A DNA stretch of 64,000 nt from a virus (taxonomy: Duplodnaviria; Heunggongvirae; Uroviricota; Caudoviricetes), in IMG/VR virus record IMGVR_UViG_2872147552_000001; one strand, written 5' to 3'. The position numbers and the translations under genes are program-made. Each line of letters starts with the position of its first letter. The first letter of the stretch is position 1. Positions 8,203-63,150 of the stretch are shown in pieces. The notes under the pieces are model-generated. The model was not told the DNA's origin. It searched no databases and worked only from the letters and a program-made list of their open reading frames with translations.

Positions 8203-8207
8203 TATTC

Positions 8208-9823: not shown

Positions 9824-9830
9824 TTTACTC

Positions 9831-10352: not shown

Positions 10353-10384
10353 TGTGTCCCCCTCATTTGAGGGGAACTTCGACA

Positions 10385-10772: not shown

Positions 10773-10773
10773 A

Positions 10774-11466: not shown

Positions 11467-11479
11467 CCTTGATCTCCTG

Positions 11480-11815
11480 TTATTGCAGTCCACTTTTTAC
11501 GCCATACGCGGCTAACCCCAAAAGCAGTGCGGTAATAATGAACGACGTTATTTTAGAAACAATGCCGCCAAAGAACCCACTTGAGATGGAATCTAACCGG
11601 TTAAGGAGTTTGTCCAGATTGGAGTGTTGAATACTATGTTGCGCCGGGGTCATATCACCAAAGTAGGTTTTCAGCTGATCATTGACCTCCTGGCCAATTT
11701 CTTCACGTAGCTCTTTACCTAATTTGCCAACAACCTCCCGAGCAACGATCGCGGCAATACGCTCAACTTGCTCTGTTGTAACGCCCGCCATCTCGTTCGA
11801 CATGTTTTCCTCCAT
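11480..11815 (-). CDS. holin-like small membrane protein
   Basis: 111 aa, C-terminal TM ITSFIITALLLGLAAYGV; immediately upstream of endolysin. Confidence 0.45.
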   Translation of the reverse strand: MEENMSNEMAGVTTEQVERIAAIVAREVVGKLGKELREEIGQEVNDQLKTYFGDMTPAQHSIQHSNLDKLLNRLDSISSGFFGGIVSKITSFIITALLLGLAAYGVKSGLQ

Positions 11816-11877
11816 GAAAAGTCAAATCGGGATGGCGGTTTTATATCATAAAACGCCCACACTTGGTAGGTAAGTAC

Positions 11878-12717
11878 TTACACATGAGCGCCGTAAATTG
11901 CTCCAACTTTAGTCCAAGTTGGAGCATTACCAGTAACAGCTTTACCAGCTGCTCCGCCGTTATATTCTGTACCGTTACCTTGAGTATTACATCTTCCTCC
12001 AGCAGCACCGACATTACCACCCGAACCGCCTGTATATGCACTAAGAGACCCCTCACCAACAGATCCCTTACCAGGAGTGGAAATAGTACCAGCAGTTGCA
12101 CCGGAACTCATATGAGAGGAAGACCCACCAGCACCGAATGGGCACCCACCGCCACCACCAAATACTAGTCGACCCCTGTTACCGCCGCCACCGCCGCCAC
12201 CACCTCCAGCGATTGCACCATTATTCGTAATACGCAAGCGTGTACCGATGCCATTATTAATTGCGTTACCACCAGCAGCACCGGCAGCGTTACTACCACC
12301 ATTGCCACCGCGTCCATAGACAGTCACACCTGCGTTGATTACAAGGCTGATATAAGAGTTGGTAAGTGAACTCGGGAAATCTAAACATGGCACGCCGCTA
12401 CTGGACGACACCAGATCCCCTGTAATGGTAACAACGACTGGCGTCGCCCCCTGGGATTTTAAATAGTTGATCAGTGTGTCTTTGTTGTAGTTATGATTCG
12501 CACCGATGCTGTACTGAACTTCTTTAGATCGCCCGGCCATTTGAGACATTGAACCAGCCGCTGGCAGTTGCACCGCCGTTCGAGCCGCACTCATCCATCT
12601 CTGGCCTGTCACACTGACAGCCGAAGACCCAATCCAACCGGGAACACCGACAATTGGCACATCTAATCTCCTTTTTGATGTGAATATCCTGAATTGGTGA
12701 GGGTGGCCCCTCACCAT
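11878..12717 (-). CDS. glycine-rich tail fibre-associated protein
   Basis: Poly-Gly tracts (GGGGGGGGGNRG); directly downstream of the long tail fibre gene. Confidence 0.5.
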   Translation of the reverse strand: MVRGHPHQFRIFTSKRRLDVPIVGVPGWIGSSAVSVTGQRWMSAARTAVQLPAAGSMSQMAGRSKEVQYSIGANHNYNKDTLINYLKSQGATPVVVTITGDLVSSSSGVPCLDFPSSLTNSYISLVINAGVTVYGRGGNGGSNAAGAAGGNAINNGIGTRLRITNNGAIAGGGGGGGGGNRGRLVFGGGGGCPFGAGGSSSHMSSGATAGTISTPGKGSVGEGSLSAYTGGSGGNVGAAGGRCNTQGNGTEYNGGAAGKAVTGNAPTWTKVGAIYGAHV

Positions 12718-12726
12718 TCACCTTGA

Positions 12727-38240: not shown

Positions 38241-38266
38241 TTGAATAACCTTAGATAATTACTTAC

Positions 38267-39523
38267 CTATCGAGAACCACCAAGAATAACACGGTTTTTG
38301 ACTGGATACCTACGATGTACTGGATAGCCCAATGCGTCTGCACTATGCTCAATGCCACCTGTCTTATCCATATCTCGTGTTCCAGGCTTGTAGATGACTT
38401 TTTCCAGTGAATCAATCAAATGCTTGCACTTCGGATCGATATACAGCCGGATATCTCCAGATGCGGTCATCAGCATTCGGTTAACAGCATTAACACGATC
38501 CGCAATTGGCGGGTGCTTTTTCGAATAATCGACACGTAAGAATCCCTTCTCTTTGAATATGTCGACGTCAGACTCCCCGCGAGCATGTTGGCGATAAGCA
38601 CCTGCCGGATCTGGAAATACCGTTATCTGTGATTTCCAGCGCCAGAAGCGTCTCTCAAGCTCATCACAAACCTCTGCCGTGTTAGAGGAAAAGAGCACCA
38701 ATTCATCAATTGCCCATAGCTCACCATTTGGCTGAGGTTGCAAAATTACTGAAGACATCGGGTCAATGTTGAAGTCCTGCCCTACCCATATAGGCAACCG
38801 AGGGTTGAACTGAAGCGGTTTTACATGCACGTTACGATCGAACGGGTAGTAAACGCGCCCGGACATGTTCTCAAAGCTCGCCAGGTACTCCTGAGCGAAC
38901 GATTTCGGGTCCATATCGTTCTTAGCAGCTTCAATTTCCGCCGTAGGTACAAACGGAGAATCGGCAGTTACAAACTGCCAGCTCTTCCACTGTCCCTTTC
39001 TTTGCAGCTCTACGTTCTGGCCTATAGTCCACAGTTTGTGAAATTCCGAGAAGCCTTTTGGCGTACCAATGATCAGTGCACCGCCGCGTGTCGATGAAAG
39101 AGTAGGTCGTAACACCTTGTACCAGGTGTCAGCCTTCATATCCTGAAATTCATCAAGCACTACAAAATGCAACGCTACGCCGCGCAGAGTGTCAGGCTTA
39201 TCAGCACCTTTGAGGGCGATCTCCGAACCGTTCTTCAACACGATTGTCATCGTGGTGTCGTTCTTTTTCCTAACCCACTTACGAGGCAGAACTTCCTGTA
39301 GATCGTCCCACAAAATCTGGCGAGCCATCTGGTAAGTAGGAGCGACATACCAGACCCTTTGCTTTTTTTCCTTTGCCGCCGCACGAATAATAGTGGAGAT
39401 CGACAACCGGGATTTTCCCCAGCGTCGACCAGCACAAACAACTTTAAATCGATGCGGAGACTGGAAGACTTTCATCTGTCCAGAATGCAGTTGCACAAGA
39501 CTGAGCGAGGACGGGATTGCCAT
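38267..39523 (-). CDS. terminase large subunit
   Basis: Walker A CAGRRWGKS, Walker B VVLDEF, C-terminal nuclease-like domain; overlaps TerS stop. Confidence 0.9.
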   Translation of the reverse strand: MAIPSSLSLVQLHSGQMKVFQSPHRFKVVCAGRRWGKSRLSISTIIRAAAKEKKQRVWYVAPTYQMARQILWDDLQEVLPRKWVRKKNDTTMTIVLKNGSEIALKGADKPDTLRGVALHFVVLDEFQDMKADTWYKVLRPTLSSTRGGALIIGTPKGFSEFHKLWTIGQNVELQRKGQWKSWQFVTADSPFVPTAEIEAAKNDMDPKSFAQEYLASFENMSGRVYYPFDRNVHVKPLQFNPRLPIWVGQDFNIDPMSSVILQPQPNGELWAIDELVLFSSNTAEVCDELERRFWRWKSQITVFPDPAGAYRQHARGESDVDIFKEKGFLRVDYSKKHPPIADRVNAVNRMLMTASGDIRLYIDPKCKHLIDSLEKVIYKPGTRDMDKTGGIEHSADALGYPVHRRYPVKNRVILGGSR

Positions 39524-48935: not shown

Positions 48936-49055
48936 GCAGCCGTTTCCCGAAAAAATCCTGGCCGTTTCCCGTCGGCTCATGAATACGTTCCTCGCCGTTT
49001 CTGAAAATTTCCCTGCGGCAGCTGGTGGCTATAGAGAAAGGGCCGTTTCTGGCCC
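48936..49055. repeat. iteron-like direct repeats (GCCGTTTCCCGAAAA family), cluster A
   Basis: Four copies of gccgtttc(c)c(g/t)gaaaa-like units at about 48938, 48961, 48994, 49042. Confidence 0.55.
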
Positions 49056-49064
49056 TCTTCTCAG

Positions 49065-49547
49065 TTACACGCCATCAAGGATGTGGATGCGGTTGCTTGC
49101 GTATACATTCAGCATAAAGTTAGCGCAAAACAGTTTCCATGTATCAACGCCAGCGGTATACGTAATGTTTTTGCATTTAATCGCATTGTTGGCGATCCGC
49201 ATCCCCTGCGATACTGCTTCATCGTCGGAAAATTTGAACGACGATTGAGTTTTAATCCAGACAGAAATCTGCGTAGCGAACTCAATCAGCTTGGACTGGC
49301 AGAATCGCCCGGAGCGCACCGGAAAGACGAACGTTCCGAATCCAGAATTTACCACATACGCTTTCTCAAATACCCGCGAGTAACGACGATTGCCAATGAT
49401 GTCGCGTGCAATAATGCATTTTTCTTGTGCTGACAGTTCTACCGTCTCATTGTCGCGCCATGCACCAAGTACTCGTTTTTCAATGTCAGAGAACGTTACA
49501 GCGATATTGCCATGTGCGGGTGCGTTTACAGTAGCGATAAAATTCAT
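49065..49547 (-). CDS. hypothetical protein
   Basis: 160-aa ORF with AAGGA RBS; GAAAACAA.TTGTTTTC-type operator upstream. Confidence 0.55.
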   Translation of the reverse strand: MNFIATVNAPAHGNIAVTFSDIEKRVLGAWRDNETVELSAQEKCIIARDIIGNRRYSRVFEKAYVVNSGFGTFVFPVRSGRFCQSKLIEFATQISVWIKTQSSFKFSDDEAVSQGMRIANNAIKCKNITYTAGVDTWKLFCANFMLNVYASNRIHILDGV

Positions 49548-49724
49548 GATTAATTCCTTATCGTAAATAACAAATTGTTTTCTTGTTGGTGTTAATTATC
49601 GTTGTACGAATAAGGCGTCAAAGTGGAAAGTTGCGGTAGCCGGACGGGAACAGGTGGGTTTGTCGGTTGCCTGGAGGTAAGAGGTTGGTGTTTTTAGCCT
49701 GCGGGAAACAGGATGGTCATTTAA

Positions 49725-49744
49725 GGCCACCAGCATTGGTGGCC
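49725..49744. terminator. hairpin terminator (ggccaccagcattggtggcc)
   Basis: Perfect 8-bp stem immediately downstream of the 49752 gene stop; related hairpins at about 50196-50216, 51821-51839, 58827-58847, 63100-63120. Confidence 0.55.
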
Positions 49745-49751
49745 TTAATCT

Positions 49752-50039
49752 TTAGTGGAGCAGACCGATGTCGATGGTATCCCCTGAATCATCCACACGG
49801 ATCATCAGCATGGCGAAGGCGTTTAGTGGATAACTGGCGTGCCATTCAGGGAAGCGGTCATCTCGCATGAAGTCGGCAATGTCGTAAACGCATCCCTCAA
49901 AGTGGAAGAATCGCGTGCTTACCTGCTCGTCATATTCCACATGATCCATTTCTTGCTGTTCTGTTTCCGGCAAGTCCAGCCATGATTCAAGGAATACATT
50001 TTGTGCTTTAGGGGTAATGGTGAAATCAGTCATGAGCAT
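49752..50039 (-). CDS. small acidic protein
   Basis: Start at MLMTDFTITPK with GAGGA RBS (track ORF to 50165 would cover the upstream operator); strongly acidic. Confidence 0.55.
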   Translation of the reverse strand: MLMTDFTITPKAQNVFLESWLDLPETEQQEMDHVEYDEQVSTRFFHFEGCVYDIADFMRDDRFPEWHASYPLNAFAMLMIRVDDSGDTIDIGLLH

Positions 50040-50368
50040 ATCCTCACTGCGTAAACATGTTGTTTTCTTGTTGGTGTAATTATCGCAGTGTAGATAAGGC
50101 ATAAAAGAAGTTAATACAGGCTGAATACACAAGAAAGGTTCTGGAAGTTGATAGCCAGGTTTCAAACTAACCTTCGGTTATTAAAAGTCATTTAAGACCA
50201 CCAATGCTGGTGGCCTTAATAATTATCGACCGATTACGCTAAGGATCTTTTCCTCAACTGATTTGTTGTTGCGACTAAACTGCCTTGCGTATCTGATGAC
50301 AGAAGAGGCGTTTTGCTTTCTGACCATCTCGGCTCTTTCCTTCAGGCGTTTCTTGAAATCGCCCATAT

Positions 50369-50743
50369 TTACCACCAGGCGCAGAAGGTCAGTCTGTTAT
50401 TGTGAAAGTCGTGGTTCTTAATCAGATCTTCCACAATCTCTTTCAACTCCCCCACATCATGCCAGTAACCTTCATCGTACTCCTGACTGCCGAAGAAAAA
50501 ACCTTCCCGGGTAGGCAAGTACTCTTCGCAATTACTTTCGTTTATGTGCATCAAATGAGCCTTCAGAAAACAAATGTCATTCATCGTTAATTCTAAAAGC
50601 TCACAATTTTCGACTTCACCTACGTTGCGCTCCATCCACCCAACGAGCGCATTGAACTTACGGAAGTAAGCAACCTGCTTTCTGGATGCCTCGTTATTCA
50701 GATCGTTTTTAGGCTGTGTCTCGATATAGATATCAAGTCCCAT
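50369..50743 (-). CDS. small acidic protein
   Basis: Start at MGLDIYIETQ with AAGGAAA RBS (track to 50785). Confidence 0.55.
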   Translation of the reverse strand: MGLDIYIETQPKNDLNNEASRKQVAYFRKFNALVGWMERNVGEVENCELLELTMNDICFLKAHLMHINESNCEEYLPTREGFFFGSQEYDEGYWHDVGELKEIVEDLIKNHDFHNNRLTFCAWW

Positions 50744-50860
50744 GATGGTTTCCTTATTAAGTTGCTTCAGTGAAATCATTTTCACAAATCAGATAAGGCA
50801 GAAAACAAATTGTTATCGGGCATAAGAAAATGGCGCGGTTTACGCGCCATTTAAAGAGGA

Positions 50861-51256
50861 TTAAGCGAATACGCTTTCAGGGATTAAGGTGTCGGCAGGA
50901 ATGCCAGAGGTAATGCGCAGGCCGTACTGACCAATCCAGGCAGTGTTGGTATTCAGGTTGGAGGCGAATACGGTGTCAACCATATTCATCATTGGTTCAA
51001 ACACCTCTTCATCAACCTGGCGGAAGTAGTTCTCGATTTTCAGCAGCAGCGGGTCAGTTGCATCGAAAATAGACTGGTATTGAATCGCGTACTCGCCGCC
51101 GGAGGCATCACCTTTACGCACGATCGTACTGGCCTGGACTTCGGCACCAGTTTCGGTGTTGTACGTAACAACGGTGATTTTTGCCACATTCTTACCTTCG
51201 GCGGTTTCAGAGGCATAGTAAACATCAACTGTCAGTTTTTCGCGTTTAACGGTCAT
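50861..51256 (-). CDS. hypothetical protein
   Basis: Start at MTVKREKLTVDVYY with GGAGAG RBS (track to 51322); TAAGTA-TG-TACTTA operator at about 51301-51316. Confidence 0.55.
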   Translation of the reverse strand: MTVKREKLTVDVYYASETAEGKNVAKITVVTYNTETGAEVQASTIVRKGDASGGEYAIQYQSIFDATDPLLLKIENYFRQVDEEVFEPMMNMVDTVFASNLNTNTAWIGQYGLRITSGIPADTLIPESVFA

Positions 51257-51326
51257 TTCACTCTCCGTAGTGTATTGGTTATTTTTATATTCTATGATCG
51301 TAAGTATGTACTTACAATACAAAAAA

Positions 51327-51347
51327 GCCCCGTAAGGATGGCGGGGC
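51327..51347 (-). terminator. rho-independent terminator
   Basis: gccccgtaaggatggcggggc hairpin followed on minus strand by TTTTTTG. Confidence 0.7.
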
Positions 51348-51382
51348 TGTCGTACTGTCGACTAATTACCACTTGCACATTA

Positions 51383-51694
51383 TCAGGCTATTGCCATCAC
51401 TGATGCTCTCTGAATTTCTTGCTGGGCCACGCGGTTAACTTCCATCAAAGCCAGTTCGAGCTGATGTTCCGGCCACATTCTTTGAAATGCCATCCAGCCT
51501 TTTCCACGCTGGCGACGAACATTCATTACATAACGAGTAAAGGTGTTTTTATCGAAAGACACCGCTGTTTCACGGAACAGACGAATAGAGGTTCCATTGG
51601 CAACGATGTCCAGCAAAGTTAATTGAGCAACCAGCGCAGGCTTCTCTTTTCTCTTCTGGTCTTTGTCCAGACCAAGAACCAATGATTTTTTCAT
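51383..51694 (-). CDS. hypothetical small basic protein
   Basis: Start at MKKSLVLGLDK with ACGGAG RBS (track to 51724). Confidence 0.5.
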   Translation of the reverse strand: MKKSLVLGLDKDQKRKEKPALVAQLTLLDIVANGTSIRLFRETAVSFDKNTFTRYVMNVRRQRGKGWMAFQRMWPEHQLELALMEVNRVAQQEIQRASVMAIA

Positions 51695-51848
51695 CACAAC
51701 TCCGTAAACAACTTGTTTTCTCAATGGCGTAAATAATACCAGTAAGAAAACGGCTACAAAGCATAATGATCAGGTGCATGATCGATATGCAGGTTCTTCC
51801 CTGCGGCTACATATTAAGTTAAGCCAGCAATGCTGGCTTTGGTTGGGG

Positions 51849-52178
51849 TTACTCGAATACTTCAAGAAACTCCTGAACGTCCCAATGCTGGACGAGGTGA
51901 AGATAGACCTTAGAAATCACGTCATTTTCGCTATCGCATGTGAAGTAGTACTTCTGGCTGCGGTTGTATGTGTCCACACAAAATTCGCTCATATCCATAA
52001 AGTCAGCATCTTCACCCATGTCGCAAATCATCAAAGCAGGTGCGTCATCACGAGTCATCAGCTCAAGCACCCACCGCGAATTGATCAGAGTGGAAGACCA
52101 ACCTTCTAACTCATAAAACTGATCAAACTCTTTTTGAGTTAATTTCTTGATTTGGTTGATGTCGATATTTGCAAACAT
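51849..52178 (-). CDS. small acidic protein
   Basis: Start at MFANIDINQIKKL with AAGGA RBS (track to 52196); net charge about -17. Confidence 0.55.
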   Translation of the reverse strand: MFANIDINQIKKLTQKEFDQFYELEGWSSTLINSRWVLELMTRDDAPALMICDMGEDADFMDMSEFCVDTYNRSQKYYFTCDSENDVISKVYLHLVQHWDVQEFLEVFE

Positions 52179-52537
52179 AAAGCAATCCTTAAACAACTTG
52201 TTTTCTTGATGGTGTTATTATCGCAATAACGCACAGGCGAAAAAGGATTTTATTCCGGTGAATGTGGTTTTGGCAGTGAGTTTTCAGGTTCAGTACCGAG
52301 TACACTTTTTACATTATTCTGATTTAGTGGCCGAAGGTGGCTGGTGGGCAGAATAATCATCTCCCCGAAAACCTACTGAAATCGATTGTGACCCGTTGGC
52401 TGTCTGGCACAATTACGCTGTAGCTGGGCATTCAGAGGGAGTCCAACGGTAAGTTAGTCCGCCTGCACGTGAGCGCCTCTCTTCTTCCCGCACATTACAG
52501 GTGGGTAGCCGCAACTCTCCCTCACGCTATACCGGTA

Positions 52538-52680
52538 CGCCGCCGTTCCTGAACCGGCATCGAGCCTTTTCCCGAAATCCACACAGGCAACTCGACCGTT
52601 TCCCTGAAAACCTCCAGCCGTTCCCCGAAGGCAACCCAGCCGTTTCTGTAGCGGGATGCAGCTTTTTCCCTGTATGGACC
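52538..52680. repeat. iteron-like direct repeats (GCCGTTTCCCGAAAA family), cluster B
   Basis: About six units spaced 22-31 bp (gccgttcctgaa, gccttttcccgaaa, accgtttccctgaaaa, gccgttccccgaagg, gccgtttctgtag, gctttttccctgta). Confidence 0.55.
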
Positions 52681-53731
52681 GAAGGCTGACCGTAGGGGTG
52701 TTACGGGGGATAAAATCAGGAGTTGAATAAATACGAAAAAGGAGGCGACACCCCTCCTTCCCTCCCCACTTATACATACCTGGCTTCTTCGCTATACATG
52801 TTGTGTTTTATTCGTGTTTTATCTGTCTCAACCTCTCTATGGACGTTAACACTCACTCCTTCCAGAACGTTCTATACGGCGACTAATTCTGTTGGTGAAT
52901 TGGGTGTGTTGTTCTCTCTGTCGGTGTATGTGGTTTCGTTCGTTTTGCGGTGGTTCTTCTATGGGGTGTTCTCGTCGTTTTGGTGATTGTTCTTCTCCGT
53001 GTATGGAGTAATGGCAGGTGGGCGATTCCTTTCGTTGTTGTGTTTGAGTTGTTTGTCTGGAGTGTGAAAGGCTTTTGTAGTTATTCGTGTATTGGGTAAT
53101 GGCGTTTCCCGTGATTGTTCTGTTTCGTGTCTTTTGGGATTGAGAGAAGCCTTGCGGTTACAGGCTTCGTTGGGGGTTCAGTGATTCTGGTGTTTCTTCG
53201 CTGTTTGGGTAATGGCGTGTCGTGGGTATCGCGCGTATGAATGTTTTCGGATTGCCTGTGAAAGTTAGGTTGGTTGTCCGGTAGCCTGGGGAGAAGAGGT
53301 GGGTCTTTTCGGTAGCCTGCCATAAAGAGGTTGGTTGTTTTTGGAAATGGCATATGTGTTATTTAGTTGTTTTGTTATGCCTGAAAATAAGTTGTTTATA
53401 TGGTTATGTAACGCAACGGGAACGATTTTGAGCGTGTGTTTTTGTTGGTAGTGTGTTGGGTCGTCTGTGGTGAAAATTGGACGCTGTGGCGCTGTCTGCT
53501 GCGTAGAATTACGGGTATAAGCAGTGATGTGTGAAAACGTCAATTTTTTAGACCAAATAGGGTGAAAGCGTTGATGTTTCGTTGATCTGTTATTTAGTTG
53601 TTTTCTTGTTTGTATAAACAACTATAACCTATTGATATTTAAGGATGTGATTGCGGGTATGGAAGGGGAGTAGTGGCGATCAACGGATTCTTATAGAAAA
53701 GAATCAAATTGTGACCGCCATTATCAATGTT

Positions 53732-54466
53732 TTACTTAGTTTTGTTTAGCAGAGAGAGAATTTCATCACTAATTTCACTCGCCTGTTTGATAGCCAATGC
53801 AGTTACCTCTTCTATGGTTGGTGACTGTTGATGCTCATGTTTGGTTTCAGTTATGACAATGTGTTCTTCACCTGAATTTGCGCATAGTGCCGCATTGACT
53901 ATAAGGTTTGAGTAAGAATTTAGCAGAGCACTGTTGATAAACGCTTTCACGGTATTACTGTCTGCACCAAATACATCTTTTCTGACCGCTTCAGCCTCAC
54001 AGCGAACCCCTGCAGCAACATCGTGAAGAACATGTATGGCCTTGGAGCTTGTTTGTTCACAGTACTCAATCATTATTGTCGAATTGTTCTGTTCAACAAA
54101 TGATCTGATGCCTGACGATTCACCCATAGCATCGAAGGCAGCGTGACCCGCACTAGTAGAGATATCTTCGTAGAGTTCTTCATCGCTATCTTTTTCTTCA
54201 GGTGTCGAGGTGTCTTCATCGTCGTAATAGATATTGCCTTTAATCAGTGTTTTGGATACTTGATATAAACAATAAGAGACGAGATTTAAGCATTGGATTT
54301 TAGCTGTATTGTCCTTTGTCGCCTCGCTCTTCAGTTCTTTCGCTTCTTCAGTAAGGCTGTTGATAAGACTTTGTATTTTTTCCAACGCGTTAGGTGCACA
54401 CTCCGCGTTGTCCATAAAGAATTTATAACCAGTTCCAGGGATTTCTAAACTTTTCAACTTTTTCAT
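53732..54466 (-). CDS. hypothetical acidic protein
   Basis: 244-aa ORF, first gene left of the metG-proximal operator pair. Confidence 0.55.
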   Translation of the reverse strand: MKKLKSLEIPGTGYKFFMDNAECAPNALEKIQSLINSLTEEAKELKSEATKDNTAKIQCLNLVSYCLYQVSKTLIKGNIYYDDEDTSTPEEKDSDEELYEDISTSAGHAAFDAMGESSGIRSFVEQNNSTIMIEYCEQTSSKAIHVLHDVAAGVRCEAEAVRKDVFGADSNTVKAFINSALLNSYSNLIVNAALCANSGEEHIVITETKHEHQQSPTIEEVTALAIKQASEISDEILSLLNKTK

Positions 54467-54511
54467 TTCTTTGATAATCCTAAAAACAAACTACCAATGC
54501 TTTAATATCTG

Positions 54512-54811
54512 TTACCAGTTCCAGCACTCAAGCCCTTCAACGACCGGTGCACCACAATCAAAATGTACAGAGTCAAAGCCTACATCAAGTACTTTCTGAA
54601 TGTTAGCAATCGCGCCTTCGGATATACCATATCGACGCAAGTCCTCTTTCCAGACATCATCCTGTAACCCGGCGTGGACAATACAACCGCCGTCAATTTG
54701 CGAAACCCAATCCAGCTCATTGCTTGCGATCATGAATCGGCGAGCATCTTCCTCTGATGTATGAGATGAACTGATCAATGCCACCTGGTAGGCTTGGGTA
54801 ATGTTCAACAT
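54512..54811 (-). CDS. small acidic protein
   Basis: About 99 aa; two GAAAACAA.TTGTTTTC-type operators at 54823-54885 immediately upstream. Confidence 0.5.
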   Translation of the reverse strand: MLNITQAYQVALISSSHTSEEDARRFMIASNELDWVSQIDGGCIVHAGLQDDVWKEDLRRYGISEGAIANIQKVLDVGFDSVHFDCGAPVVEGLECWNW

Positions 54812-54931
54812 TTCAACCACTCCGAAACAATTTGTTTTCTTATGTGGTTTATTATCTCCATCAACAAAAGGCAGAAAACAAATTGTTTTAGGTACTGTGT
54901 AAATCAGAAGGGATTGTGTCTATATGAAAAT

Positions 54932-54950
54932 GCCCGGCGTGTTGCCGGGC
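54932..54950 (-). terminator. metG rho-independent terminator
   Basis: gcccggcgtgttgccgggc hairpin followed on minus strand by ATTTTCAT, 20 nt after metG stop. Confidence 0.75.
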
Positions 54951-54972
54951 ATTGCGAAGAGAGGTTGTTTAA

Positions 54973-57006
54973 TTACTTAACCTGGTGGCCAGGTTTAGCA
55001 CCAGCATCCGGGCTTAACAGGAAGATATCTTTCCCGCCGGGGCCAGCAGCCATCACCATGCCTTCAGAGATACCGAAGCGCATTTTACGTGGTGCCAGGT
55101 TAGCCACCATAATGGTGTGACGACCAATCAGTGCCTGTGGATCTGGATAAGCGGAACGGATGCCTGAGAAGACATTACGCTTTTCACCACCGAGATCCAG
55201 CGTCAGGCGAAGCAGTTTGTCAGAACCTTCTACAAACTCTGCGTTTTCAATCAGCGCCACGCGCAGGTCAACTTTGGCGAAGTCGTCAAAGGTGATAGTT
55301 TCCTGAATCGGGTCGTCAGCCAGTGGGCCAGTTACCGGTGCGGCTGTGGCTTTCACTTCTTCTTTGGATGCTTCCACCAGTGCTTCAACCTGCTTCATAT
55401 CGATGCGGTTATACAGTGCCTTGAACGGATTTACTTTATGGCCCAGCAGCGGTTGCTGGATACCATCCCAGGTCAGTTCTGTATTCAGGAATGCTTCTGC
55501 ACGTTCAGTCAGTTTCGGCAGTACCGGCTTCAGGTACGTCATCAGCACGCGGAACAGGTTAATGCCCATAGAGCAAATCGCCTGCAGATCGGCATCGCGA
55601 CCTTCCTGCTTCGCCACCACCCACGGAGCCTGTTCATCGACATAGCGGTTAGCCAGGTCAGCCAATGCCATGATTTCACGGATAGCTTTACCAAATTCGC
55701 GGCTTTCCCATGCTTCGCCAATCACTTCAGCGGCATCAGTAAAGGTTTTGTACAGTTGCGGGTCAGCCAGTTCGCTTGCCAGCACGCCGTCAAAACGCTT
55801 GTTTATAAAGCCTGCATTACGGGAGGCCAGGTTAACCACTTTGTTCACGATATCGGCATTCACGCGCTGAACGAAATCCTCCAGGTTGAGATCGATATCA
55901 TCAATGCGCGAAGAGAGTTTCGCAGTGTAGTAGTAACGCAGGCTGTCGGCGTCAAAATGATTCAGCCAGGTGCTGGCTTTAATAAAGGTGCCGCGAGACT
56001 TGGACATCTTCGCGCCGTTCACCGTCACATAGCCGTGAACAAACAGGTTGGTCGGCTTGCGGAAGTTGCTGCCTTCCAGCATGGCAGGCCAGAACAGGCT
56101 GTGGAAGTAAACAATATCTTTACCGATGAAGTGGTACAGCTCGGCGGTGGAGTCTTTCTTCCAGTATTCATCGAAGCTGGTGGTATCGCCGCGCTTGTCG
56201 CACAGATTCTTGAAGGAACCCATGTAGCCAATCGGCGCGTCCAGCCAGACGTAGAAATATTTGCCCGGCGCGTCCGGAATTTCAAAACCGAAGTAAGGCG
56301 CATCGCGGGAGATATCCCACTGTTGCAGGCCGGATTCAAACCATTCCTGCATTTTGTTCGCCACCTGCTCCTGCAACGCGCCGCTGCGGGTCCATGCCTG
56401 CAACATTTCGCTGAAAGAAGGCAGATCAAAGAAGAAGTGTTCGGAATCACGCATTACCGGGGTAGCGCCAGAAACCACCGATTTCGGCTCGATCAATTCA
56501 GTCGGGCTATATGTTGCGCCGCAGACTTCACAGTTATCGCCGTATTGATCTGGCGCTTTACATTTCGGGCAGGTGCCTTTTACAAAACGATCCGGCAGGA
56601 ACATGCCTTTTTCCGGGTCGTACAACTGAGAGATAGTGCGGTTTTTAATAAAACCGTTCTCTTTCAGGCGAGTATAGATAAGCTCAGACAACTGACGGTT
56701 CTCTTCGCTGTGCGTCGAGTGATAGTTGTCATAGCTGATGTTAAAGCCTGCGAAATCAGTCTGGTGTTCCTGACTCATTTCGCCAATCATCTGCTCCGGT
56801 GTGATACCAAGCTGCTGCGCTTTCAGCATGATCGGCGTACCGTGGGCATCGTCGGCACAGATGAAATTAACCTCGTGGCCGCGCATTCGCTGGTAACGAA
56901 CCCAGACATCAGCCTGGATGTGCTCCAGCATATGGCCGAGGTGGATTGAGCCGTTAGCGTACGGCAGCGCGCACGTCACCAGAATTTTCTTCGCGACTTG
57001 GGTCAT
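54973..57006 (-). CDS. metG: methionine--tRNA ligase
   Basis: 677-aa product starting [37 protein letters not shown] and KMSKS motifs, Zn knuckle CPKC...CEVC; recalled from memory as near-identical to E. coli MetG; track ORF has a 43-codon spurious N-terminal extension. Confidence 0.97.
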
Positions 57007-57163
57007 AGTAGGCATTACTTCTTTGTAGTGAAAAGGGGCTTGATAGTAACAAAATGGCCTTATGTCTGCCATGTGATAACAGCATTTCTCATAAATGATT
57101 AAATGTCGTAGCTGGAGTACACTACAAGGCGACAATTGCGCAAATTAAAATAAAGGAGACGGG

Positions 57164-58264
57164 ATGAGCGAGTCCAAATCGCCGGATGCCCTGAGAGCAA
57201 TGGTAGCCGGTACGCTGGCTAATTTTCAGCACCCAACCCTGAAACACAACCTGACTACGCTTAAAGCGTTACACCATGTTGCGTTGATGGATGACACACT
57301 GCATGTCGAACTAATCATGCCTTTCGTGTGGAATAAGCCTTTTGAAGACCTGAAAGAGCAATGTAGTGGTGATCTGCTCCGTATCACTGGCGCAAAGGCT
57401 ATTGACTGGAAGCTGTCGTACAACATTGCCACGCTTAAGCGCGTCAAAAACCAACCAGGCATTAATGGCGTTAAGAACATTATCGCCGTCAGCTCAGGCA
57501 AGGGCGGCGTGGGTAAATCCTCCACGGCGGTAAACCTGGCACTGGCGTTGGCTGCTGAAGGTGCGAAAGTTGGTATTTTGGATGCCGATATCTATGGTCC
57601 ATCAATTCCAACCATGCTGGGTGCGGAAAACCAACGTCCAACCTCACCTGACGGTACTCACATGGCACCTATCATGTCTCATGGCCTGGCAACCAACTCT
57701 ATTGGTTATCTGGTCACCGACGACAATGCAATGGTGTGGCGTGGACCGATGGCCAGCAAGGCGCTGATGCAGATGTTGCAGGAAACTCTATGGCCTGATC
57801 TGGACTATCTCGTTCTCGATATGCCGCCGGGCACTGGTGATATTCAGTTGACGCTGGCGCAGAACATTCCTGTAACTGGTGCGGTTGTGGTAACTACGCC
57901 GCAAGACATCGCGCTGATCGATGCGAAGAAAGGCATTGTGATGTTCGAAAAAGTCGAAGTGCCGGTACTGGGTATCGTCGAAAACATGAGTGTGCATATT
58001 TGCAGTAACTGCGGTCATCACGAGCCAATTTTTGGCACCGGTGGCGCACAGAAACTGGCCGAGAAATACAACACGCAGTTGTTAGGCCAAATGCCACTTC
58101 ATATCTCTCTTCGTGAAGATCTGGATAACGGAACACCAACCGTTATTAGTCGTCCAGATAGCGAATTTACGGCTATTTATCGTGACCTCGCAGATCGCGT
58201 TGCCGCCCAAATGTATTGGCAAGGTGAAGTAATACCTGGCGAAATCGCATTCCGCGCAGTGTGA
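57164..58264 (+). CDS. apbC: Fe-S cluster carrier ATPase Mrp/ApbC
   Basis: P-loop SGKGGVGKSST, CxxC motif ICSNCGHH; 366 aa; divergent from metG as in the E. coli chromosome. Confidence 0.95.
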   Translation: MSESKSPDALRAMVAGTLANFQHPTLKHNLTTLKALHHVALMDDTLHVELIMPFVWNKPFEDLKEQCSGDLLRITGAKAIDWKLSYNIATLKRVKNQPGINGVKNIIAVSSGKGGVGKSSTAVNLALALAAEGAKVGILDADIYGPSIPTMLGAENQRPTSPDGTHMAPIMSHGLATNSIGYLVTDDNAMVWRGPMASKALMQMLQETLWPDLDYLVLDMPPGTGDIQLTLAQNIPVTGAVVVTTPQDIALIDAKKGIVMFEKVEVPVLGIVENMSVHICSNCGHHEPIFGTGGAQKLAEKYNTQLLGQMPLHISLREDLDNGTPTVISRPDSEFTAIYRDLADRVAAQMYWQGEVIPGEIAFRAV

Positions 58265-58270
58265 TAAAAA

Positions 58271-58289
58271 GGCGGTGCATTGCACCGCC
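58271..58289. terminator. bidirectional terminator between apbC and UmuD'-like gene
   Basis: ggcggtgcattgcaccgcc hairpin flanked by A-run / T-run. Confidence 0.65.
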
Positions 58290-58301
58290 TAATCAGTTCT
58301 C

Positions 58302-58691
58302 CTACATCACGGGACAATCATCAAACTCGCCACTTCTTGCGTCGTTGATAATGTGAGTGATCACACCAAACACGGCATTGCTGCCCGTGCATCCATCGTC
58401 ATCCTTTGGCAATGCTTCCTTCTTACCGGTTCTTAAATCCTCCAGATGCTGACGTGGGTACTTCCGGTATCTTTTTACGCGATATTCCCCATCCAGAGCG
58501 CATACAAGCAGAGAACCATCAACCGGGGTAAGCGAGGAATCGACCACCAGCAATGCACCCTGTAATATTCCCTCACGATGATGACTATCAGCTGCCCTCA
58601 TGAAGTAGGTCGCTGAAGGATGTCTAATTATCTGCTGATCAAGAGAAATACGGCTCTCAGCATAATCCGCCGCAGGAGAAGGGAAGCCCAT
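58302..58691 (-). CDS. UmuD'-like S24 peptidase (lacks N-terminal arm)
   Basis: Begins MGFPSPAADYAE (equivalent to the UmuD cleavage-site region), retains Ser (DSH) and Lys (RVKRYRK) of the catalytic dyad; 129 aa. Confidence 0.75.
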   Translation of the reverse strand: MGFPSPAADYAESRISLDQQIIRHPSATYFMRAADSHHREGILQGALLVVDSSLTPVDGSLLVCALDGEYRVKRYRKYPRQHLEDLRTGKKEALPKDDDGCTGSNAVFGVITHIINDARSGEFDDCPVM

Positions 58692-58863
58692 AGCGTTTTG
58701 CCCTCAATACTGTTCATTTATACAGTATACATGAAAGAAGCTCACTCAGTGCAACTGATCGGTACATAGCACCAGACAAAGGAACGTTATTTTCTCGAAC
58801 AAGAAAAGGTAGAAAACAAATTGTTTAAGGCCACAACTAGTGGCCTTAATGGAGAAGGGATGC

Positions 58864-59388
58864 TTATTGGCTATGGCTAAAAATCAAATGAGACACTTCA
58901 TTTGGTTGTAGCTCGTCAAGATCCGGGGCCACAAAACCTTTTCCAAAAGACTTCACAAGTGATTCACCAGCCGCATCATTGTCACCTATTACGCGAAAGT
59001 CATACGGCAGCATTGCCAGTTGACGACGTAATCCTGCTGAGAAAGTCGAACCTAACAGCGCCCACGAATTTCCGCCCGCGTTGTGCACTGCTGCACTTTT
59101 AAAAATCGACTCAGTTATCCATATCGGTCCATCTTTTAAAGGAAGATAGGTTCCCCATAGTAGCTGTCTGCCGTTCGCTCGTGTGAAATACCGGGCCATC
59201 TTCGGATTGCTATGCTGCTTAGGAGCGCCTGGTCTGTATGTCTGATACCCGGCCAACATCCCATCAAACCTGTATAGAGGGAACGTAACAACTCCTTCGC
59301 TTTCATCGATCCACTGTCTATATGGATGCACATCATGGCGGTAGTTACGAGTTAGCAAATGAGCTTCCAGCTTTCCATATTTGGTCAT
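58864..59388 (-). CDS. small TOPRIM-like domain protein
   Basis: DFRVIGDNDAAGE (DxD-type TOPRIM motif); start at internal Met after upstream stop (track to 59427). Confidence 0.45.
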   Translation of the reverse strand: MTKYGKLEAHLLTRNYRHDVHPYRQWIDESEGVVTFPLYRFDGMLAGYQTYRPGAPKQHSNPKMARYFTRANGRQLLWGTYLPLKDGPIWITESIFKSAAVHNAGGNSWALLGSTFSAGLRRQLAMLPYDFRVIGDNDAAGESLVKSFGKGFVAPDLDELQPNEVSHLIFSHSQ

Positions 59389-59401
59389 AACTTCGCATCC
59401 C

Positions 59402-60217
59402 TCATAACACTTCCCATTTATCACCATATTTCTCCATAGCTCTTAGCCAGTAAACATGGCCACTAGGCATAGTGATGTGAGGCTCGCCAAACTCTTCTCC
59501 ATGCACATCAAAGATGTCCCCAACAGAGAATTGGGGGATTTCTACGCCGTTTTCACCTATATGCGTAATTCGTATACGTTTCGGTTGAGATTCTCCCCCT
59601 TTGAGCGAGTTGTTCACTGCTCTGGCAATCTTCTCCCGCAATTGCTGCGTTCCGTGGTACTGAACCGCAATATCCCTCAACTCATTCACCAGTTCTCGAA
59701 TCTGGTGATCTTTAAGCTCATTATTTGAGTGATGGGTAACAACTCTGGTTAATTCACCCTTGTCTTTTGCTCTTACGTATGCAGCTCTTGTGCATTCGAC
59801 CCATGTATTACCGCCTACATTAACTTCGTAGATTAGGCTGGACTTATCTGTCAATTCGGAACAAATACGGGCCGTGGTCTGGCAACTAGAGCATTCGCAG
59901 TTATCGCGGAAACCGTGATCTACCGGTCGAGAAAGAGGTTTAACTTTTTCATCCAACTTCATCACAGCATCGTGATAAGCGTTCCAGCCGTCATCTTTAC
60001 CAAGTTGATAAATCTCTGAAGGCTCCATGTAGTCTATATCGCAACCTTCTTCATCCGATCTATCTGGTCGCTTCCCTGGTAATCGCTCATAAAAACGATT
60101 TCTGTCTCGACGTTCGGCTCTCAGTGCTAACGCAAGAAGTTGCTCAAGCGAGGTATTTGCACCAGCAATAATTTCATTGAGAATATCTTCTGTGAGATCT
60201 TTCGCTACCGTGCTCAT
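59402..60217 (-). CDS. hypothetical protein
   Basis: 271-aa ORF in coupled minus-strand operon; Cys cluster CECSSC. Confidence 0.5.
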   Translation of the reverse strand: MSTVAKDLTEDILNEIIAGANTSLEQLLALALRAERRDRNRFYERLPGKRPDRSDEEGCDIDYMEPSEIYQLGKDDGWNAYHDAVMKLDEKVKPLSRPVDHGFRDNCECSSCQTTARICSELTDKSSLIYEVNVGGNTWVECTRAAYVRAKDKGELTRVVTHHSNNELKDHQIRELVNELRDIAVQYHGTQQLREKIARAVNNSLKGGESQPKRIRITHIGENGVEIPQFSVGDIFDVHGEEFGEPHITMPSGHVYWLRAMEKYGDKWEVL

Positions 60218-60597
60218 TTATCTCTCTCAGTATGTTGCGATGGCGTAAATTTGACGACATCAAATATTTTGGATGGCATCAACTTTATCCGCGAGCTTAG
60301 TTCGGCTCTTCTCTGTAATGCGGTTAATAATGTTTTCGTTCTGACGCCTTCGTGTATCCTCATCCCTGGCACAAGAACTACATCGCAGGGGAGATGCTCA
60401 GGTGACAAATCATTTTGGGCATCGCTAATCAGTCGTGTAATCTCTCTTTCAAGCCGACCGCCTAGCTCTGTTTTAGTGCAATGTTCTGACCAATCACCAG
60501 CCTCAAGCAGCGCGAGAATGCTTAAAATATCGTCCAATAGATCAGTGGTATTATCGACTTCCTTCTGAAGCTCACCGGCTACTGATTTATGCATCAT
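60214..60597 (-). CDS. hypothetical protein
   Basis: 127-aa ORF, ATGA-type overlap with neighbours. Confidence 0.45.
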   Translation of the reverse strand: MMHKSVAGELQKEVDNTTDLLDDILSILALLEAGDWSEHCTKTELGGRLEREITRLISDAQNDLSPEHLPCDVVLVPGMRIHEGVRTKTLLTALQRRAELSSRIKLMPSKIFDVVKFTPSQHTERDK

Positions 60598-61247
60598 TCG
60601 TCATCCTCATCCGAGTCATCCTCATCACAGGATGAGAGTAGTGGGTTAGTCATTCGCCCTACTTGAGTGGCGTAGCCACGCCGACAGAGATTGCGCAGCA
60701 CACTGTATATTTCGAACATCTCGGTTCGTTCATCGCCAACATCAAGCTCAGATGCTATAGCGTGGCATTCAGTCGCGAGAGCCGATATTTTCTGAAATAA
60801 CTCTGCATTATTCACTGTTCGACTCCTGCGGCGTTCTGGTAGTGACATCCAGTGTGTGACATTGCTAATCAGACCATATTCATTAGTTTGAGGATGGTTG
60901 CCGTTAGCGTCTCCGTATTTAAGACTCTCCATAAAGCCATAATGCCTATCACCATTAACGCTCACAAAGCCGTAATAAGCAGGTATAACGCCGATCTCAC
61001 ACGTAACCAGTAAAGGAAAACTAGTTCTCCAATTTAGCTCGCCAATTACAGGCATTCGCTCACTACAGCTTATCCAACCATCCTTAGATGCGGCTGTATT
61101 GGCATAGGCCTTACGGTGCTTCTGTAACTCTGCTGCAATCGCTCTCACGACTTCAACTGGTGCCCTTGCAGCAAACTCAATGTTGGTGATCAGCTCATTA
61201 AGATATTTCTCGCTTGGGTAGCATTTCTTATTGTTAACGGTGGTCAT
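60594..61247 (-). CDS. hypothetical protein with poly-acidic C-terminus
   Basis: 217 aa ending SSCDEDDSDEDDE. Confidence 0.5.
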   Translation of the reverse strand: MTTVNNKKCYPSEKYLNELITNIEFAARAPVEVVRAIAAELQKHRKAYANTAASKDGWISCSERMPVIGELNWRTSFPLLVTCEIGVIPAYYGFVSVNGDRHYGFMESLKYGDANGNHPQTNEYGLISNVTHWMSLPERRRSRTVNNAELFQKISALATECHAIASELDVGDERTEMFEIYSVLRNLCRRGYATQVGRMTNPLLSSCDEDDSDEDDE

Positions 61248-61432
61248 TAGGCAGCTCTCTCAACAACAAGCAATTCGTCGTAGTCATAATCAGTTTCGGA
61301 ACCATCCGTACCGAACAGAGTCACTTTGTCATTTTCCATCCAAAAAGATTTAACCGCACATTGTTGACCTTTAGATGTTATGAGCACATCACCAGGGATT
61401 ACGTCTTCAGCGCGAACCTCTAGTGTTCTCAT
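61247..61432 (-). CDS. hypothetical small protein
   Basis: 61-aa ORF coupled in operon. Confidence 0.35.
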   Translation of the reverse strand: MRTLEVRAEDVIPGDVLITSKGQQCAVKSFWMENDKVTLFGTDGSETDYDYDELLVVERAA

Positions 61433-61851
61433 CGTGCTGCCCCCTCTTTGGTGAAAATGCCTGCTGCAATGCTGTTTATGATGCTGTCAGTGCATGGAGT
61501 AGAAAGCTGGGCATCTCCAGCAATTTTCATGACCTCAACATCCGCATATCGAATACCGAGGTGTATCAGACCGGCTATACCTGACTTAAGTCGAACATTT
61601 TCCATAAACAGATCCTTTTCCCGCTGTTTAACGGTCTCCAGCTCAACACGCAACTTCTCAATTTCGGCAGCCATGTAGTAACCAACCATAGCGAAAGTGG
61701 CGAAAGGGTAGTCCGAATCATCAGGAGATACGGAGGCCATTAGCAGACCATCGTGCATGTTCTGGCTTCCATCAGTGATAGATACCGCATAAGAATCGCT
61801 GGTTTCCCGCTTATACAATACGACGACCGGGTTCTTGATTTTCTCTCTCAT
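61429..61851 (-). CDS. hypothetical protein
   Basis: 140-aa ORF coupled in operon. Confidence 0.45.
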   Translation of the reverse strand: MREKIKNPVVVLYKRETSDSYAVSITDGSQNMHDGLLMASVSPDDSDYPFATFAMVGYYMAAEIEKLRVELETVKQREKDLFMENVRLKSGIAGLIHLGIRYADVEVMKIAGDAQLSTPCTDSIINSIAAGIFTKEGAAR

Positions 61852-62405
61852 TACGATGCCTCTAACTTGTCTAACTCTTTCAGCCCTTCACGTACCGCGT
61901 TCACAATGCGTTCCAGATACTGGTATTTCGGGTTTGGTACCGTTGGCCAGTCGGCATACCACGGATCATCACCAAAGAGATTCAGTAGTTTGTTACCGAC
62001 GCCGAAACAGCAGCAGCTTTCTTTTACGTCATCGGCGTTTTCCGCCTCGTCCCACATTTCGCGAGCCAGTACGGCGTCTATTTCTCTCTCTCTTCGTAAC
62101 TTTATGATTTCTGACTTCACGAAAAGCAGATTTGCATCGTTGTCATCGTCGACCGTGCTTCGCAGTTGAGGGTCGAAATAGCCGATTAGATACTCGTTGC
62201 TGACCCGCTTAATGAACGTCTGCACATCATCACCGCCCATAGCAAACCAAGCCGCAGTCCACGCTTTTCCGTAGCAGGTGATGGTGATTCTTCCCTTACC
62301 AGGTTCGTAGTTTTCAATCATCACTCGAACCGGATCGAGGCGTTCCAGATCCGTCAGCACAAAGGAAAGAACATCTATTTTTTCGATCTTCATGCAGCCT
62401 CCCAC
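61851..62405 (-). CDS. hypothetical protein
   Basis: 184-aa ORF coupled in operon. Confidence 0.45.
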   Translation of the reverse strand: MGGCMKIEKIDVLSFVLTDLERLDPVRVMIENYEPGKGRITITCYGKAWTAAWFAMGGDDVQTFIKRVSNEYLIGYFDPQLRSTVDDDNDANLLFVKSEIIKLRREREIDAVLAREMWDEAENADDVKESCCCFGVGNKLLNLFGDDPWYADWPTVPNPKYQYLERIVNAVREGLKELDKLEAS

Positions 62406-63031: not shown

Positions 63032-63150
63032 TCTTAACTCCGTTGTTTTCTAGTTGTGGTTATTTTCACAAATAAGAAAAGGTAGAAAACAATTTATTTA
63101 AGGCCACAACTTATGGCCTTTATTTATTCATGCCGAAGGATTTGTAGCGT

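Follow-up and report, generated by a model that had tools for sequence, protein, structure and literature searches.

A metG-apbC cassette of chromosomal origin in Escherichia phage-plasmids of the SSU5 type

Introduction

The question raised by the DNA analysed here, a 64,000-nucleotide (nt) stretch of the Caudoviricetes record IMGVR_UViG_2872147552_000001 from IMG/VR (hereafter the window), is how two host housekeeping genes, metG and apbC (mrp), came to lie within a viral element, and whether they are maintained there for a function. The original prediction, made from the letters of the window, proposed two routes: either the element had captured a chromosomal metG-apbC segment, or two related elements had inserted on both sides of the chromosomal locus. 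It also allowed for an assembly chimera. The analyses presented below point to capture, and to a segment that is probably a selected auxiliary housekeeping cassette of the phage-plasmids that carry it.

Identity of the element and of the cassette genes

Searches with blastn matched the window region at 98-99% identity to complete circular plasmids of 100-115 kb, among them pLF82 (strain LF82), the O104:H4 plasmid p09EL50 and one of the pECOH89 kind (111,741 bp, blaCTX-M-15-type). Matches among deposited phage genomes were four in number, namely Cyrano, PhiR41_1 and two CMS-2020a records; pLF82 and phage Cyrano, ~99% identical to the window, are two names for the same element. Collinearity with Salmonella phage SSU5 furthermore extended across structural, replication and early genes of the window (blastn blocks of 67-91% identity, one of them 20 kb long at 80.7%). 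The collinear structural, replication and partition genes expected of an SSU5-type backbone were hence present, and the portal and terminase genes matched 757 plasmids in PLSDB. These comparisons identify the window as part of a circular ~108-kb SSU5-type phage-plasmid of the pLF82/Cyrano kind. The window itself spans 64 kb only, and circularity is taken from the near-identical complete records, which supply the extrachromosomal circular state that the original prediction had proposed to verify. Cyrano has been described as a virion-producing, SSU5-like siphovirus with a copy number of ~5.5 plasmids per cell and a 39-fold induction by ciprofloxacin (PMC9928086).

Curated protein models resolved the interval singled out by the original prediction into three genes, metG, apbC and humD, each scoring far above the cut-off of its model. 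Together with the circular plasmids, they bear out the reported location of a 677-residue methionyl-tRNA synthetase (MetRS) gene and of apbC inside a mobile element. Both genes are transcribed divergently, as they are on enterobacterial chromosomes. The MetRS starts at an ATG, with a longer mechanical open reading frame extending to 57135 from a TTG. It scored 1020.9 bits against the NF001100 equivalog (cut-off 587, residues 4-677 covered) and 1279 bits against the E. coli MetRS structure 1F4L. Its Pfam domains (tRNA-synt_1g, PF09334; Anticodon_3, PF19303; tRNA_bind, PF01588) are accompanied by intact HLGH (residue 22), KMSKS (333) and zinc-cysteine motifs (CPKC at 146 and CEVC at 159). The element metG is 94.1% identical to that of K-12 at the nucleotide level and 98.7% at the amino acid level, from which we infer that its product charges tRNA-Met, and no MetRS residue was both fixed in plasmid copies and absent from chromosomal enzymes.

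The ApbC protein scored 759.3 bits against NF008669 (cut-off 348) and 785 bits against PDB 8ZKC, and encompasses a NUBPL P-loop domain (PF10609) at residues 103-346, a GKGGVGKS motif at 112 and a CSNC (CxxC) motif at 280. Eleven fixed residues, including W41L, are unique to the phage-plasmids when set against the sampled chromosomes; most fall within residues 1-70, and the substitutions are located mainly in the N-terminal extension, outside the nucleoside triphosphatase (NTPase) domain. By this comparison apbC is a distinct variant confined to phage-plasmids. Both cassette genes apparently encode complete, predicted-active enzymes.

Homology to K-12 was limited to positions 54972-58260 (88.4% identity), a span that is bounded by the stop codons of metG and apbC and takes in the divergent control region. 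Outside this span, neither the adjoining sequences nor the two hairpin terminators within them had a counterpart beside metG or apbC in 80 enterobacterial chromosomes. As judged from these boundaries, metG-apbC is a 3.3-kb cassette from a host chromosome. In K-12 the neighbors of the pair are yehE and yehF, and the statement in the original prediction that the K-12 pair lacks phage-like neighbors was correct.

Distribution of the cassette

A chromosomal metG-apbC match was detected in each of 5426 complete E. coli genomes, at ~90% identity to the window and with at least 80% of the cassette covered in 5423 of them; the second, chromosomal metG that the original prediction suggested looking for is thus present in 5426/5426. 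Within the same genomes, a second copy at 95% identity or more was found in 216 records, nearly all of them plasmids. The element flank that adjoins the cassette in the window occurred at 252 places on plasmids, in 243/5426 genomes, and on a chromosome at 0/252. The suggested comparison with metG loci of related strains gave a concordant result, the metG terminator hairpin having no match downstream of metG in 80 chromosomal loci.

In PLSDB, 188 plasmids carried the cassette at 95% identity or more, in E. coli, Shigella, E. albertii and E. marmotae hosts. Among the 757 plasmids with homologous portal and terminase genes, 185 matched at 95% or more and were considered clade-type. Since 188 cassette plasmids stand against 185 with clade-type portal and terminase, the cassette is, on these counts, close to universal in the Escherichia clade of these phage-plasmids. 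It is absent from the Klebsiella, Enterobacter and Yersinia members, from most Salmonella members and from SSU5, and ~570/757 plasmids of the supergroup lack it. Joined flanks without the cassette, representing an empty site, were found in 0/726 matching PLSDB plasmids.

These data bear directly on the two non-capture readings. An assembly chimera, or a pair of related elements on both sides of the chromosomal metG locus, was favored only by the first impression that housekeeping genes do not suit a phage. Against this impression, many laboratories have independently sequenced complete circular plasmids (100-115 kb) with the same arrangement, over 200 in total, and the Sanger-finished pLF82 has it too; the chromosomal locus is intact in all genomes, and the cassette shares only 88% identity with it. 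Given the circular plasmids, the retained chromosomal copies and a flank that is never chromosomal, both readings are refuted, and we assign them virtually no chance of being correct. Capture of a chromosomal metG-apbC segment, the first of the two routes originally proposed, agrees with the more than 200 independent circular plasmids, the four phage genomes and a chromosomal copy that is always kept. A mobile second MetRS copy, which the original prediction deemed unusual, is so in general but is the rule in this phage-plasmid clade.

Other candidates were set aside on the same data. Addiction of the host to the plasmid through an essential gene was not supported, because chromosomal copies are never lost (5426/5426 genomes) and the cassette is therefore no addiction device. 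The Klebsiella pneumoniae plasmid pKLP00155_4 (256 kb), listed in PLSDB among records with Klebsiella- or Salmonella-type cassettes, was rejected as a carrier: its cassette has purely chromosomal neighbors and it is probably a chromosome fragment. Other PLSDB "plasmids" of 0.25-5 Mb matching the cassette (NZ_OP378650.1, CP125156.1, CP061244.1, NZ_CP134663.1 and others) look chromosomal by size alone.

A probable ancestral insertion with a recombining interior

A Salmonella enterica record, CP053410.1 (107.7 kb), provided an outside view of the insertion. It is a genuine phage-plasmid, with a backbone ~78% identical to the window over 45 kb, in which the metG-apbC pair occupies the corresponding site and immediately adjoins the same operator module. 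At 98.2% (metG) and 98.9% (apbC) identity, its coding sequences match those of a Salmonella chromosome, versus only 83% for those of the window, and its cassette interior is 97% identical to a Salmonella chromosome. Three features nonetheless join CP053410.1 to the Escherichia elements and occur in no chromosome: the junction GGTACTGTGT(A/T)AAT, a metG end reading (G/A)TT AAG TAA where Salmonella and Escherichia chromosomes read GTG AAA TAA, and a homologous metG terminator. In SSU5, the same operator module is followed directly by the next phage gene, corresponding to an unoccupied site. The simplest reading of these data is one ancestral insertion, the interior of which would later have been overwritten by homologous recombination with the host chromosome, an argument for single capture that leans largely on the one Salmonella element.

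The two genes differ in their affinities. The distance between element and K-12 metG (94.1% identity; synonymous divergence, dS, of 0.29) approximates that between K-12 and another Escherichia species (94.3%). Element apbC is 82.2% identical to the K-12 gene and 80-83% identical to those of Salmonella and Citrobacter, two Escherichia chromosomes being 90% identical to each other, and the closest chromosomal apbC among the matches listed from 80 enterobacterial chromosomes, a donor set without E. albertii, E. fergusonii and E. marmotae chromosomes, reached 82.7% nt identity. Within the control region, only the 47 nt adjoining metG are Escherichia-like (89-91%), and the remainder finds its only alignments, of 75-78% identity, in the Citrobacter and Salmonella types. 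The metG strand contains a TACTAT hexamer, invariant in 7/7 aligned control regions, which we interpret as a putative -10 promoter element of metG. As assessed by these identities, the Escherichia cassette is a chimera, with an Escherichia-like metG and an apbC that is equally far from every sampled genus, and its capture is dated as old, from a donor other than the present host.

Recombination with the host is apparent within metG. Some plasmid alleles present tracts 99-100% identical to K-12 inside a gene that is otherwise 91-95% identical, and the longest perfect K-12 run in a plasmid metG measures 344 nt versus ~94 nt expected (P ~3e-6). Diversity among the plasmids is ~2.6-fold higher for metG (mean dS 0.18) than for apbC (0.07). 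The portal and terminase genes vary far less than either, with at least 99% identity in 161 of the 185 plasmids matching at 95% or more. The mosaic tracts show that element metG repeatedly recombines with the chromosomal metG of its host by what reads as gene conversion, its sequence tracking the host genus. It is conceivable, though we think it unlikely, that the phage-plasmid thereby keeps an essential translation gene in concerted evolution with its current host genus, behind one ancestral junction, as an adaptive, host-matched module for translation and Fe-S (iron-sulfur) support.

Two further records contain unusual cassettes. CP170191.1, labelled as the chromosome of Enterobacter hormaechei B56, has a 3281-nt apbC-metG segment (4755-8035 of the extracted locus) that is 100% identical to E. 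coli K-12, between Enterobacter-like flanks of 75-80% identity; either exactly this cassette was replaced by alleles from another genus, or the record reflects contamination or a polishing artefact. IMG/VR uncultivated virus genome 2671181056_000013 contains, at positions 2002-16135, three cassette-bearing pieces joined by single Ns. Its third piece comprises a chromosomal-type cassette (96.7% to K-12), 42 nt of the chromosomal flank downstream of mrp and then phage-plasmid backbone, and is to be read as a genuine recombinant or integrant, or else as a short-read chimera. A tandem cassette array was rejected for this record, the single-N joins indicating a concatenated scaffold.

Recombination also underlies the proposal that the cassette is a stretch of chromosome homology for integration at metG or for allele shuttling, with its proteins irrelevant. 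The evident exchange with chromosomal metG, the Salmonella alleles of the Salmonella element, the scaffold piece joining a chromosomal-type cassette to phage-plasmid backbone and the Enterobacter chromosome with a K-12-identical cassette all speak for it. However, the element flank was seen in 0/5426 complete E. coli chromosomes, that is, integration at metG was never observed in them; the scaffold is joined by single Ns and its chimeric piece may be a short-read artefact; and apbC, at 82% identity, is too diverged for ready recombination, yet strongly constrained at the protein level. We hence regard a pure homology function as very improbable.

Selection on the cassette and its expression in lysogens

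Gene integrity was assessed on nine plasmid and phage records, the window and 35 IMG/VR loci, yielding 31 metG and 40 apbC copies out of the ~200 plasmids. Full-length, gap-free genes were found for 31/31 complete plasmid-type metG and 40/40 apbC copies. Variable codons were predominantly synonymous-only (280 versus 21 amino-acid-changing in metG, 105 versus 10 in apbC), and the mean ratio of nonsynonymous to synonymous substitution rates (dN/dS) was 0.014-0.015 for the two genes. Because imported chromosomal tracts could mimic purifying selection, private isolated variants, seen in no sampled chromosome, were counted separately. In metG, 5 of these were nonsynonymous and 20 synonymous, with 19 nonsynonymous expected (P = 1.6e-9 versus neutrality), and apbC presented 6 nonsynonymous and 11 synonymous (P = 3.6e-4). 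By these substitution patterns, purifying selection acts on both genes in practically all members of the Escherichia clade.

Expression could be evaluated in published LF82 transcriptomes, which cover one strain in overnight LB, medium and macrophages and are given as fragments per kilobase per million plus five (fpkm+5), with a prophage background of ~10. Morons are prophage genes expressed independently of the phage lytic program. Cyrano apbC is listed by the authors as a moron, under the name "septum site-determining protein", and has a value of 92 that is steady across conditions and ~9x the prophage background (PMC9928086). Under a moron cut-off of 5-fold over background, applied to the published Cyrano data, apbC (92) lies above and metG (16) below.

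Several observations weigh against the reading as a selected auxiliary housekeeping cassette. Cyrano metG is nearly silent, at 16 in overnight LB and ~8 elsewhere, and stays flat at 6 h in macrophages while a capsid gene rises ~25-fold (PMC9928086). Part of the low dN/dS of metG could have come in with chromosomal tracts that were already purified, and the integrity data rest on a subset of the ~200 plasmids. In addition, an Escherichia-clade plasmid, NZ_KP792123.1 (PLSDB; 101,934 bp), has a match to no more than the final 130 nt of metG, next to the left flank, apparently through deletion of the cassette. This is the only candidate loss seen.

The contrast in expression lends itself to a narrower explanation, in which apbC is the selected gene, a moron expressed by the lysogen, and metG a passenger that shares its control region and is repaired by gene conversion. 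Besides the ~9x background level of apbC and the near-background level of metG, this explanation would account for the eleven fixed phage-plasmid-unique residues of ApbC against none in MetRS, and for the chromosomal tracts that metG clearly receives. It is less easily reconciled with the strongly synonymous bias of private, non-imported metG mutations (5 nonsynonymous against the 19 expected), with the lack of any deletion or frameshift in 31 metG copies even though the flanks are fluid, or with the retention of a full metG by the Salmonella element CP053410.1. Selection on apbC with metG as passenger is accordingly considered unlikely.

A second alternative is that the extra metG acts as a backup or dosage shield against a toxin, defense system or natural inhibitor of Met-tRNA charging, perhaps an AtaT/KacT-like toxin of the element itself. 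The window does encode a GNAT toxin (9831-10352) and an adjoining TacA-type antitoxin (9515-9823). The toxin matches N-acetyltransferase structures 6GTS and 6AJM (E ~1e-78), which we take to be AtaT entries although the PDB records name them only as acetyltransferases, and KacT (5ZGN and 5XUN, E ~1e-75). AtaT acetylates Met-tRNAfMet, and second aminoacyl-tRNA synthetase (aaRS) genes are a known route to inhibitor resistance. We know of no natural MetRS-directed toxin in this habitat. A KacT-type toxin and antitoxin corresponding to the window pair have been reported as Cyrano morons (PMC9928086). The toxin pair is absent from the cassette-bearing CP053410.1 and from SSU5, however, and for this lack of co-occurrence a link between an AtaT/KacT-like toxin and MetRS was rejected. 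Moreover, metG expression in lysogens is low, and the element MetRS has no fixed substitution that could make the enzyme insensitive. A shielding role is consequently rated as quite improbable.

The inhibitor-resistant enzymes themselves offer a related candidate. Plasmid-borne mupA (IleRS2) and metS2 of Streptococcus pneumoniae are mobile second aaRS genes that give inhibitor resistance through strongly diverged enzymes. They share with the cassette the presence of an extra aaRS gene on a mobile element, but the element MetRS is no diverged paralogue: it is 98.7% identical in amino acids to the K-12 enzyme and has no fixed foreign residue. Since no fixed difference separates it from the chromosomal MetRS of Escherichia, it could act through dosage alone, and a resistance variant of the MupA/MetS2 type was rejected.

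Cassette surroundings and putative control elements

The features identified in and around the cassette are listed in Table 1. Its neighbors vary from plasmid to plasmid, with DUF5983 or DUF1380 genes on the left and humD, der, or GNAT and deacetylase genes on the right.

Table 1. Coordinates of the cassette genes and of neighboring features in the window
Feature	Position	Strand	Basis and remarks
Variable accessory region housing the cassette	53727-61869		Collinear blastn versus SSU5; replaces SSU5 86832-90410; neighbors vary, cassette constant
DUF5983-family gene, first element gene downstream of the cassette	54512-54820	minus	Pfam PF19419, E = 7.8e-11; RefSeq homologues annotated DUF5983
Operator/promoter module: two inverted 16-nt operators (54825-54840 and 54873-54888) bracketing a promoter-like stretch	54825-54888	minus	Arms 100% complementary
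metG terminator hairpin, GCCCGGC-GTGTT-GCCGGGC, then ATTTTCAT on the minus strand	54932-54950	minus	Read from sequence
metG, complete class I methionyl-tRNA synthetase, 677 aa from ATG, with C-terminal tRNA-binding domain	54973-57006	minus	NCBIfam NF001100, Pfam, motifs
Divergent metG/apbC control region, putatively captured with the genes	57007-57163	.	Alignment; holds the TACTAT hexamer and the apbC ribosome-binding site
apbC (mrp), Fe-S cluster carrier P-loop NTPase, 366 aa, phage-plasmid-specific variant	57164-58264	plus	NF008669, Pfam, motifs
Hairpin terminator between apbC and humD	58270-58290	minus	Terminator scan; T-run on the minus strand
humD, UmuD'-like SOS gene, right neighbor of the cassette in this variant	58302-58691	minus	NF051876, 220 bits
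LexA box of humD	58708-58727	.	Read from sequence
Second operator module copy (operator 58811-58826) and hairpin 58825-58849 ending the toprim operon	58786-58850	minus	Repeat family, inverted repeats, terminator scan

The original prediction described operator and hairpin families specific to the element on both sides of the pair, and motif counts and repeat families corroborate them. The palindrome AAACAANTTGTTT is located at 54825-54837, 54876-54888 and 58814-58826, and has 19 matches with at most one mismatch in the window versus 0.35 expected by chance. A 65-76-nt operator/promoter family has copies at 50775, 54848, 58786 and 63059, and a GGCC-rich hairpin pair occupies 58827-58849 and 63098-63120. 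The left junction of the cassette lies directly right of the module at 54825-54888, from which the DUF5983-family gene is predicted to be transcribed; SSU5, where the site is empty, and the Salmonella phage-plasmid have the same module at the corresponding position. Element-wide, AAACAANTTGTTT palindromes were noted at 6355, 9271, 40196, 49568, 50803, 51706, 52191, 54825, 54876, 58814 and 63087, mostly upstream of minus-strand gene blocks and conserved in SSU5 and the Salmonella relative.

The earlier assignment of own terminators to both genes holds in part. A hairpin does follow metG, but it is specific to the element, being common to Escherichia-clade and Salmonella phage-plasmids with compensatory changes in its stem. 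The hairpin that follows apbC has its T-run on the minus strand, so that it is best read as the humD terminator, at most bidirectional for apbC. This second hairpin is predicted to insulate metG from upstream transcription of the element.

The humD gene is 86-88% identical at the nucleotide level to humD of P1 and P7, and has a value of 148 in Cyrano, increasing in macrophages (PMC9928086). In SSU5 (SSU5_103, 37990-38310) and in the Salmonella element (13226-13530; both in coordinates of the extracted loci), another small gene occupies the humD slot and also presents a LexA-box-like CTGT-N8-ACAG sequence upstream. An SOS-controlled gene at this position hence seems to be a conserved feature. 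Left of the cassette, the interval 53001-54000 has the extreme GC skew (+0.33) and AT skew (-0.27) of the window, and dispersed direct repeats of 28-36 nt lie at 49660-49723 and 52993-53341; tandem repeats sought at 49000-54500 were not found.

Discussion

Taken together, the evidence makes it likely that the cassette is derived from a host, was captured and is selected in this phage-plasmid clade as an auxiliary housekeeping cassette. The shared junctions suggest that an ancestral phage-plasmid captured it once, and that it landed directly beside the operator/promoter module, in the variable early region. Its divergent control region would have been retained and a terminator specific to the element acquired, after which metG would have been repeatedly converted by the host chromosomal gene and apbC would have become the phage-plasmid-specific variant. 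A carrier cell would then obtain extra ApbC constitutively, and wild-type MetRS from a weak host-type promoter, with an output scaling with element copy number (~5 per cell in lysogeny and presumably far more after induction). Met-tRNA charging and translation initiation, as well as Fe-S delivery, might thereby be backed up while the element replicates and builds virions. We put this particular benefit, extra ApbC plus copy-scaled MetRS support, forward tentatively and at somewhat less than an even chance, an estimate lowered because metG transcription is low in the one transcriptome.

Three relatives, CP072690.1 (an E. marmotae plasmid), CP146383.1 and CP148383.1, have captured another essential translation gene at the cassette locus. 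In these, a complete der (engA), encoding a ribosome-biogenesis GTPase and 91.5% identical to the chromosomal der of E. coli, lies directly right of apbC, in the place of humD (at 6551-8023 of the extracted locus in CP072690.1). The capture of der weakly fits a theme of translation support.

The window shares a collinear backbone, operator motif and layout with the SSU5/pHCM2/pLF82 (Cyrano) family, and is 99% identical to Cyrano/pLF82. It differs from SSU5 itself, and from the ~570/757 supergroup plasmids, by the cassette, which marks the Escherichia clade and one Salmonella element. The cassette resembles prophage morons in that, within a phage genome, it is equipped with a control region and terminators of its own, and apbC is listed among the Cyrano morons; unlike them, it includes a gene, metG, below the moron expression threshold, and its cargo duplicates essential host genes and brings no new function.

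Giant viruses and huge or jumbo phages carry aaRS genes, such as the MetRS of Mimivirus, which are usually read as translation support during infection. These are likewise virus-borne aaRS genes of cellular origin, but they are distant from the host enzyme, whereas the element MetRS is 98.7% identical to that of the host and exchanges sequence with the host gene. The element metG is also distinguished by its pairing with apbC and its location on a temperate 108-kb element kept as a plasmid. Phage records with metG include Microcystis phage MaAM05, Acinetobacter phage MD-2021a and Pseudomonas phage Y5, whose products are 24-66% identical to the query MetRS among the matches listed. Cyanophages, in turn, carry the host core genes psbA and psbD, which undergo intragenic exchange with the host copies and are expressed in lytic infection. 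There too, a core host gene is fixed in a phage lineage, under purifying selection and with mosaic host tracts. The function concerned is photosynthesis in the cyanophages, as opposed to translation and Fe-S delivery here, and the lytic expression known for the cyanophage genes contrasts with an element metG near background. By analogy, viral aaRS genes and cyanophage psbA are the closest counterparts of the cassette, and mobile resistance aaRS genes a poorer match.

The genes are already annotated in hundreds of public records and are undiscussed in searchable papers. Within the searchable literature, published text on pLF82, pECOH89, enterotoxigenic E. coli phage-like plasmids, phage-plasmid surveys and Cyrano does not discuss the metG-apbC cassette, and no paper pairs SSU5 with metG. 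A literature match for phage-plasmid and methionyl-tRNA synthetase was discarded as unrelated Streptococcus thermophilus work.

About 4% of complete E. coli genomes contain SSU5-type phage-plasmids, which are already monitored as resistance-gene carriers. At this locus, a second metG in such genomes can interfere with read mapping, allele typing and essentiality screens, and a plasmid metG could blunt approaches targeting MetRS. The mosaic metG alleles provide a natural record of recombination between plasmid-prophage and chromosome. Were the host-matched module, considered unlikely above, nonetheless real, the phage-plasmid would move core-gene alleles (metG, apbC and sometimes der) between strains, and even genera, as a by-product, and the K-12-identical cassette of CP170191.1 would be one such cross-genus transfer. 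The cassette is a clear example of a temperate element that invests in housekeeping functions of its host, and one amenable to experiment.

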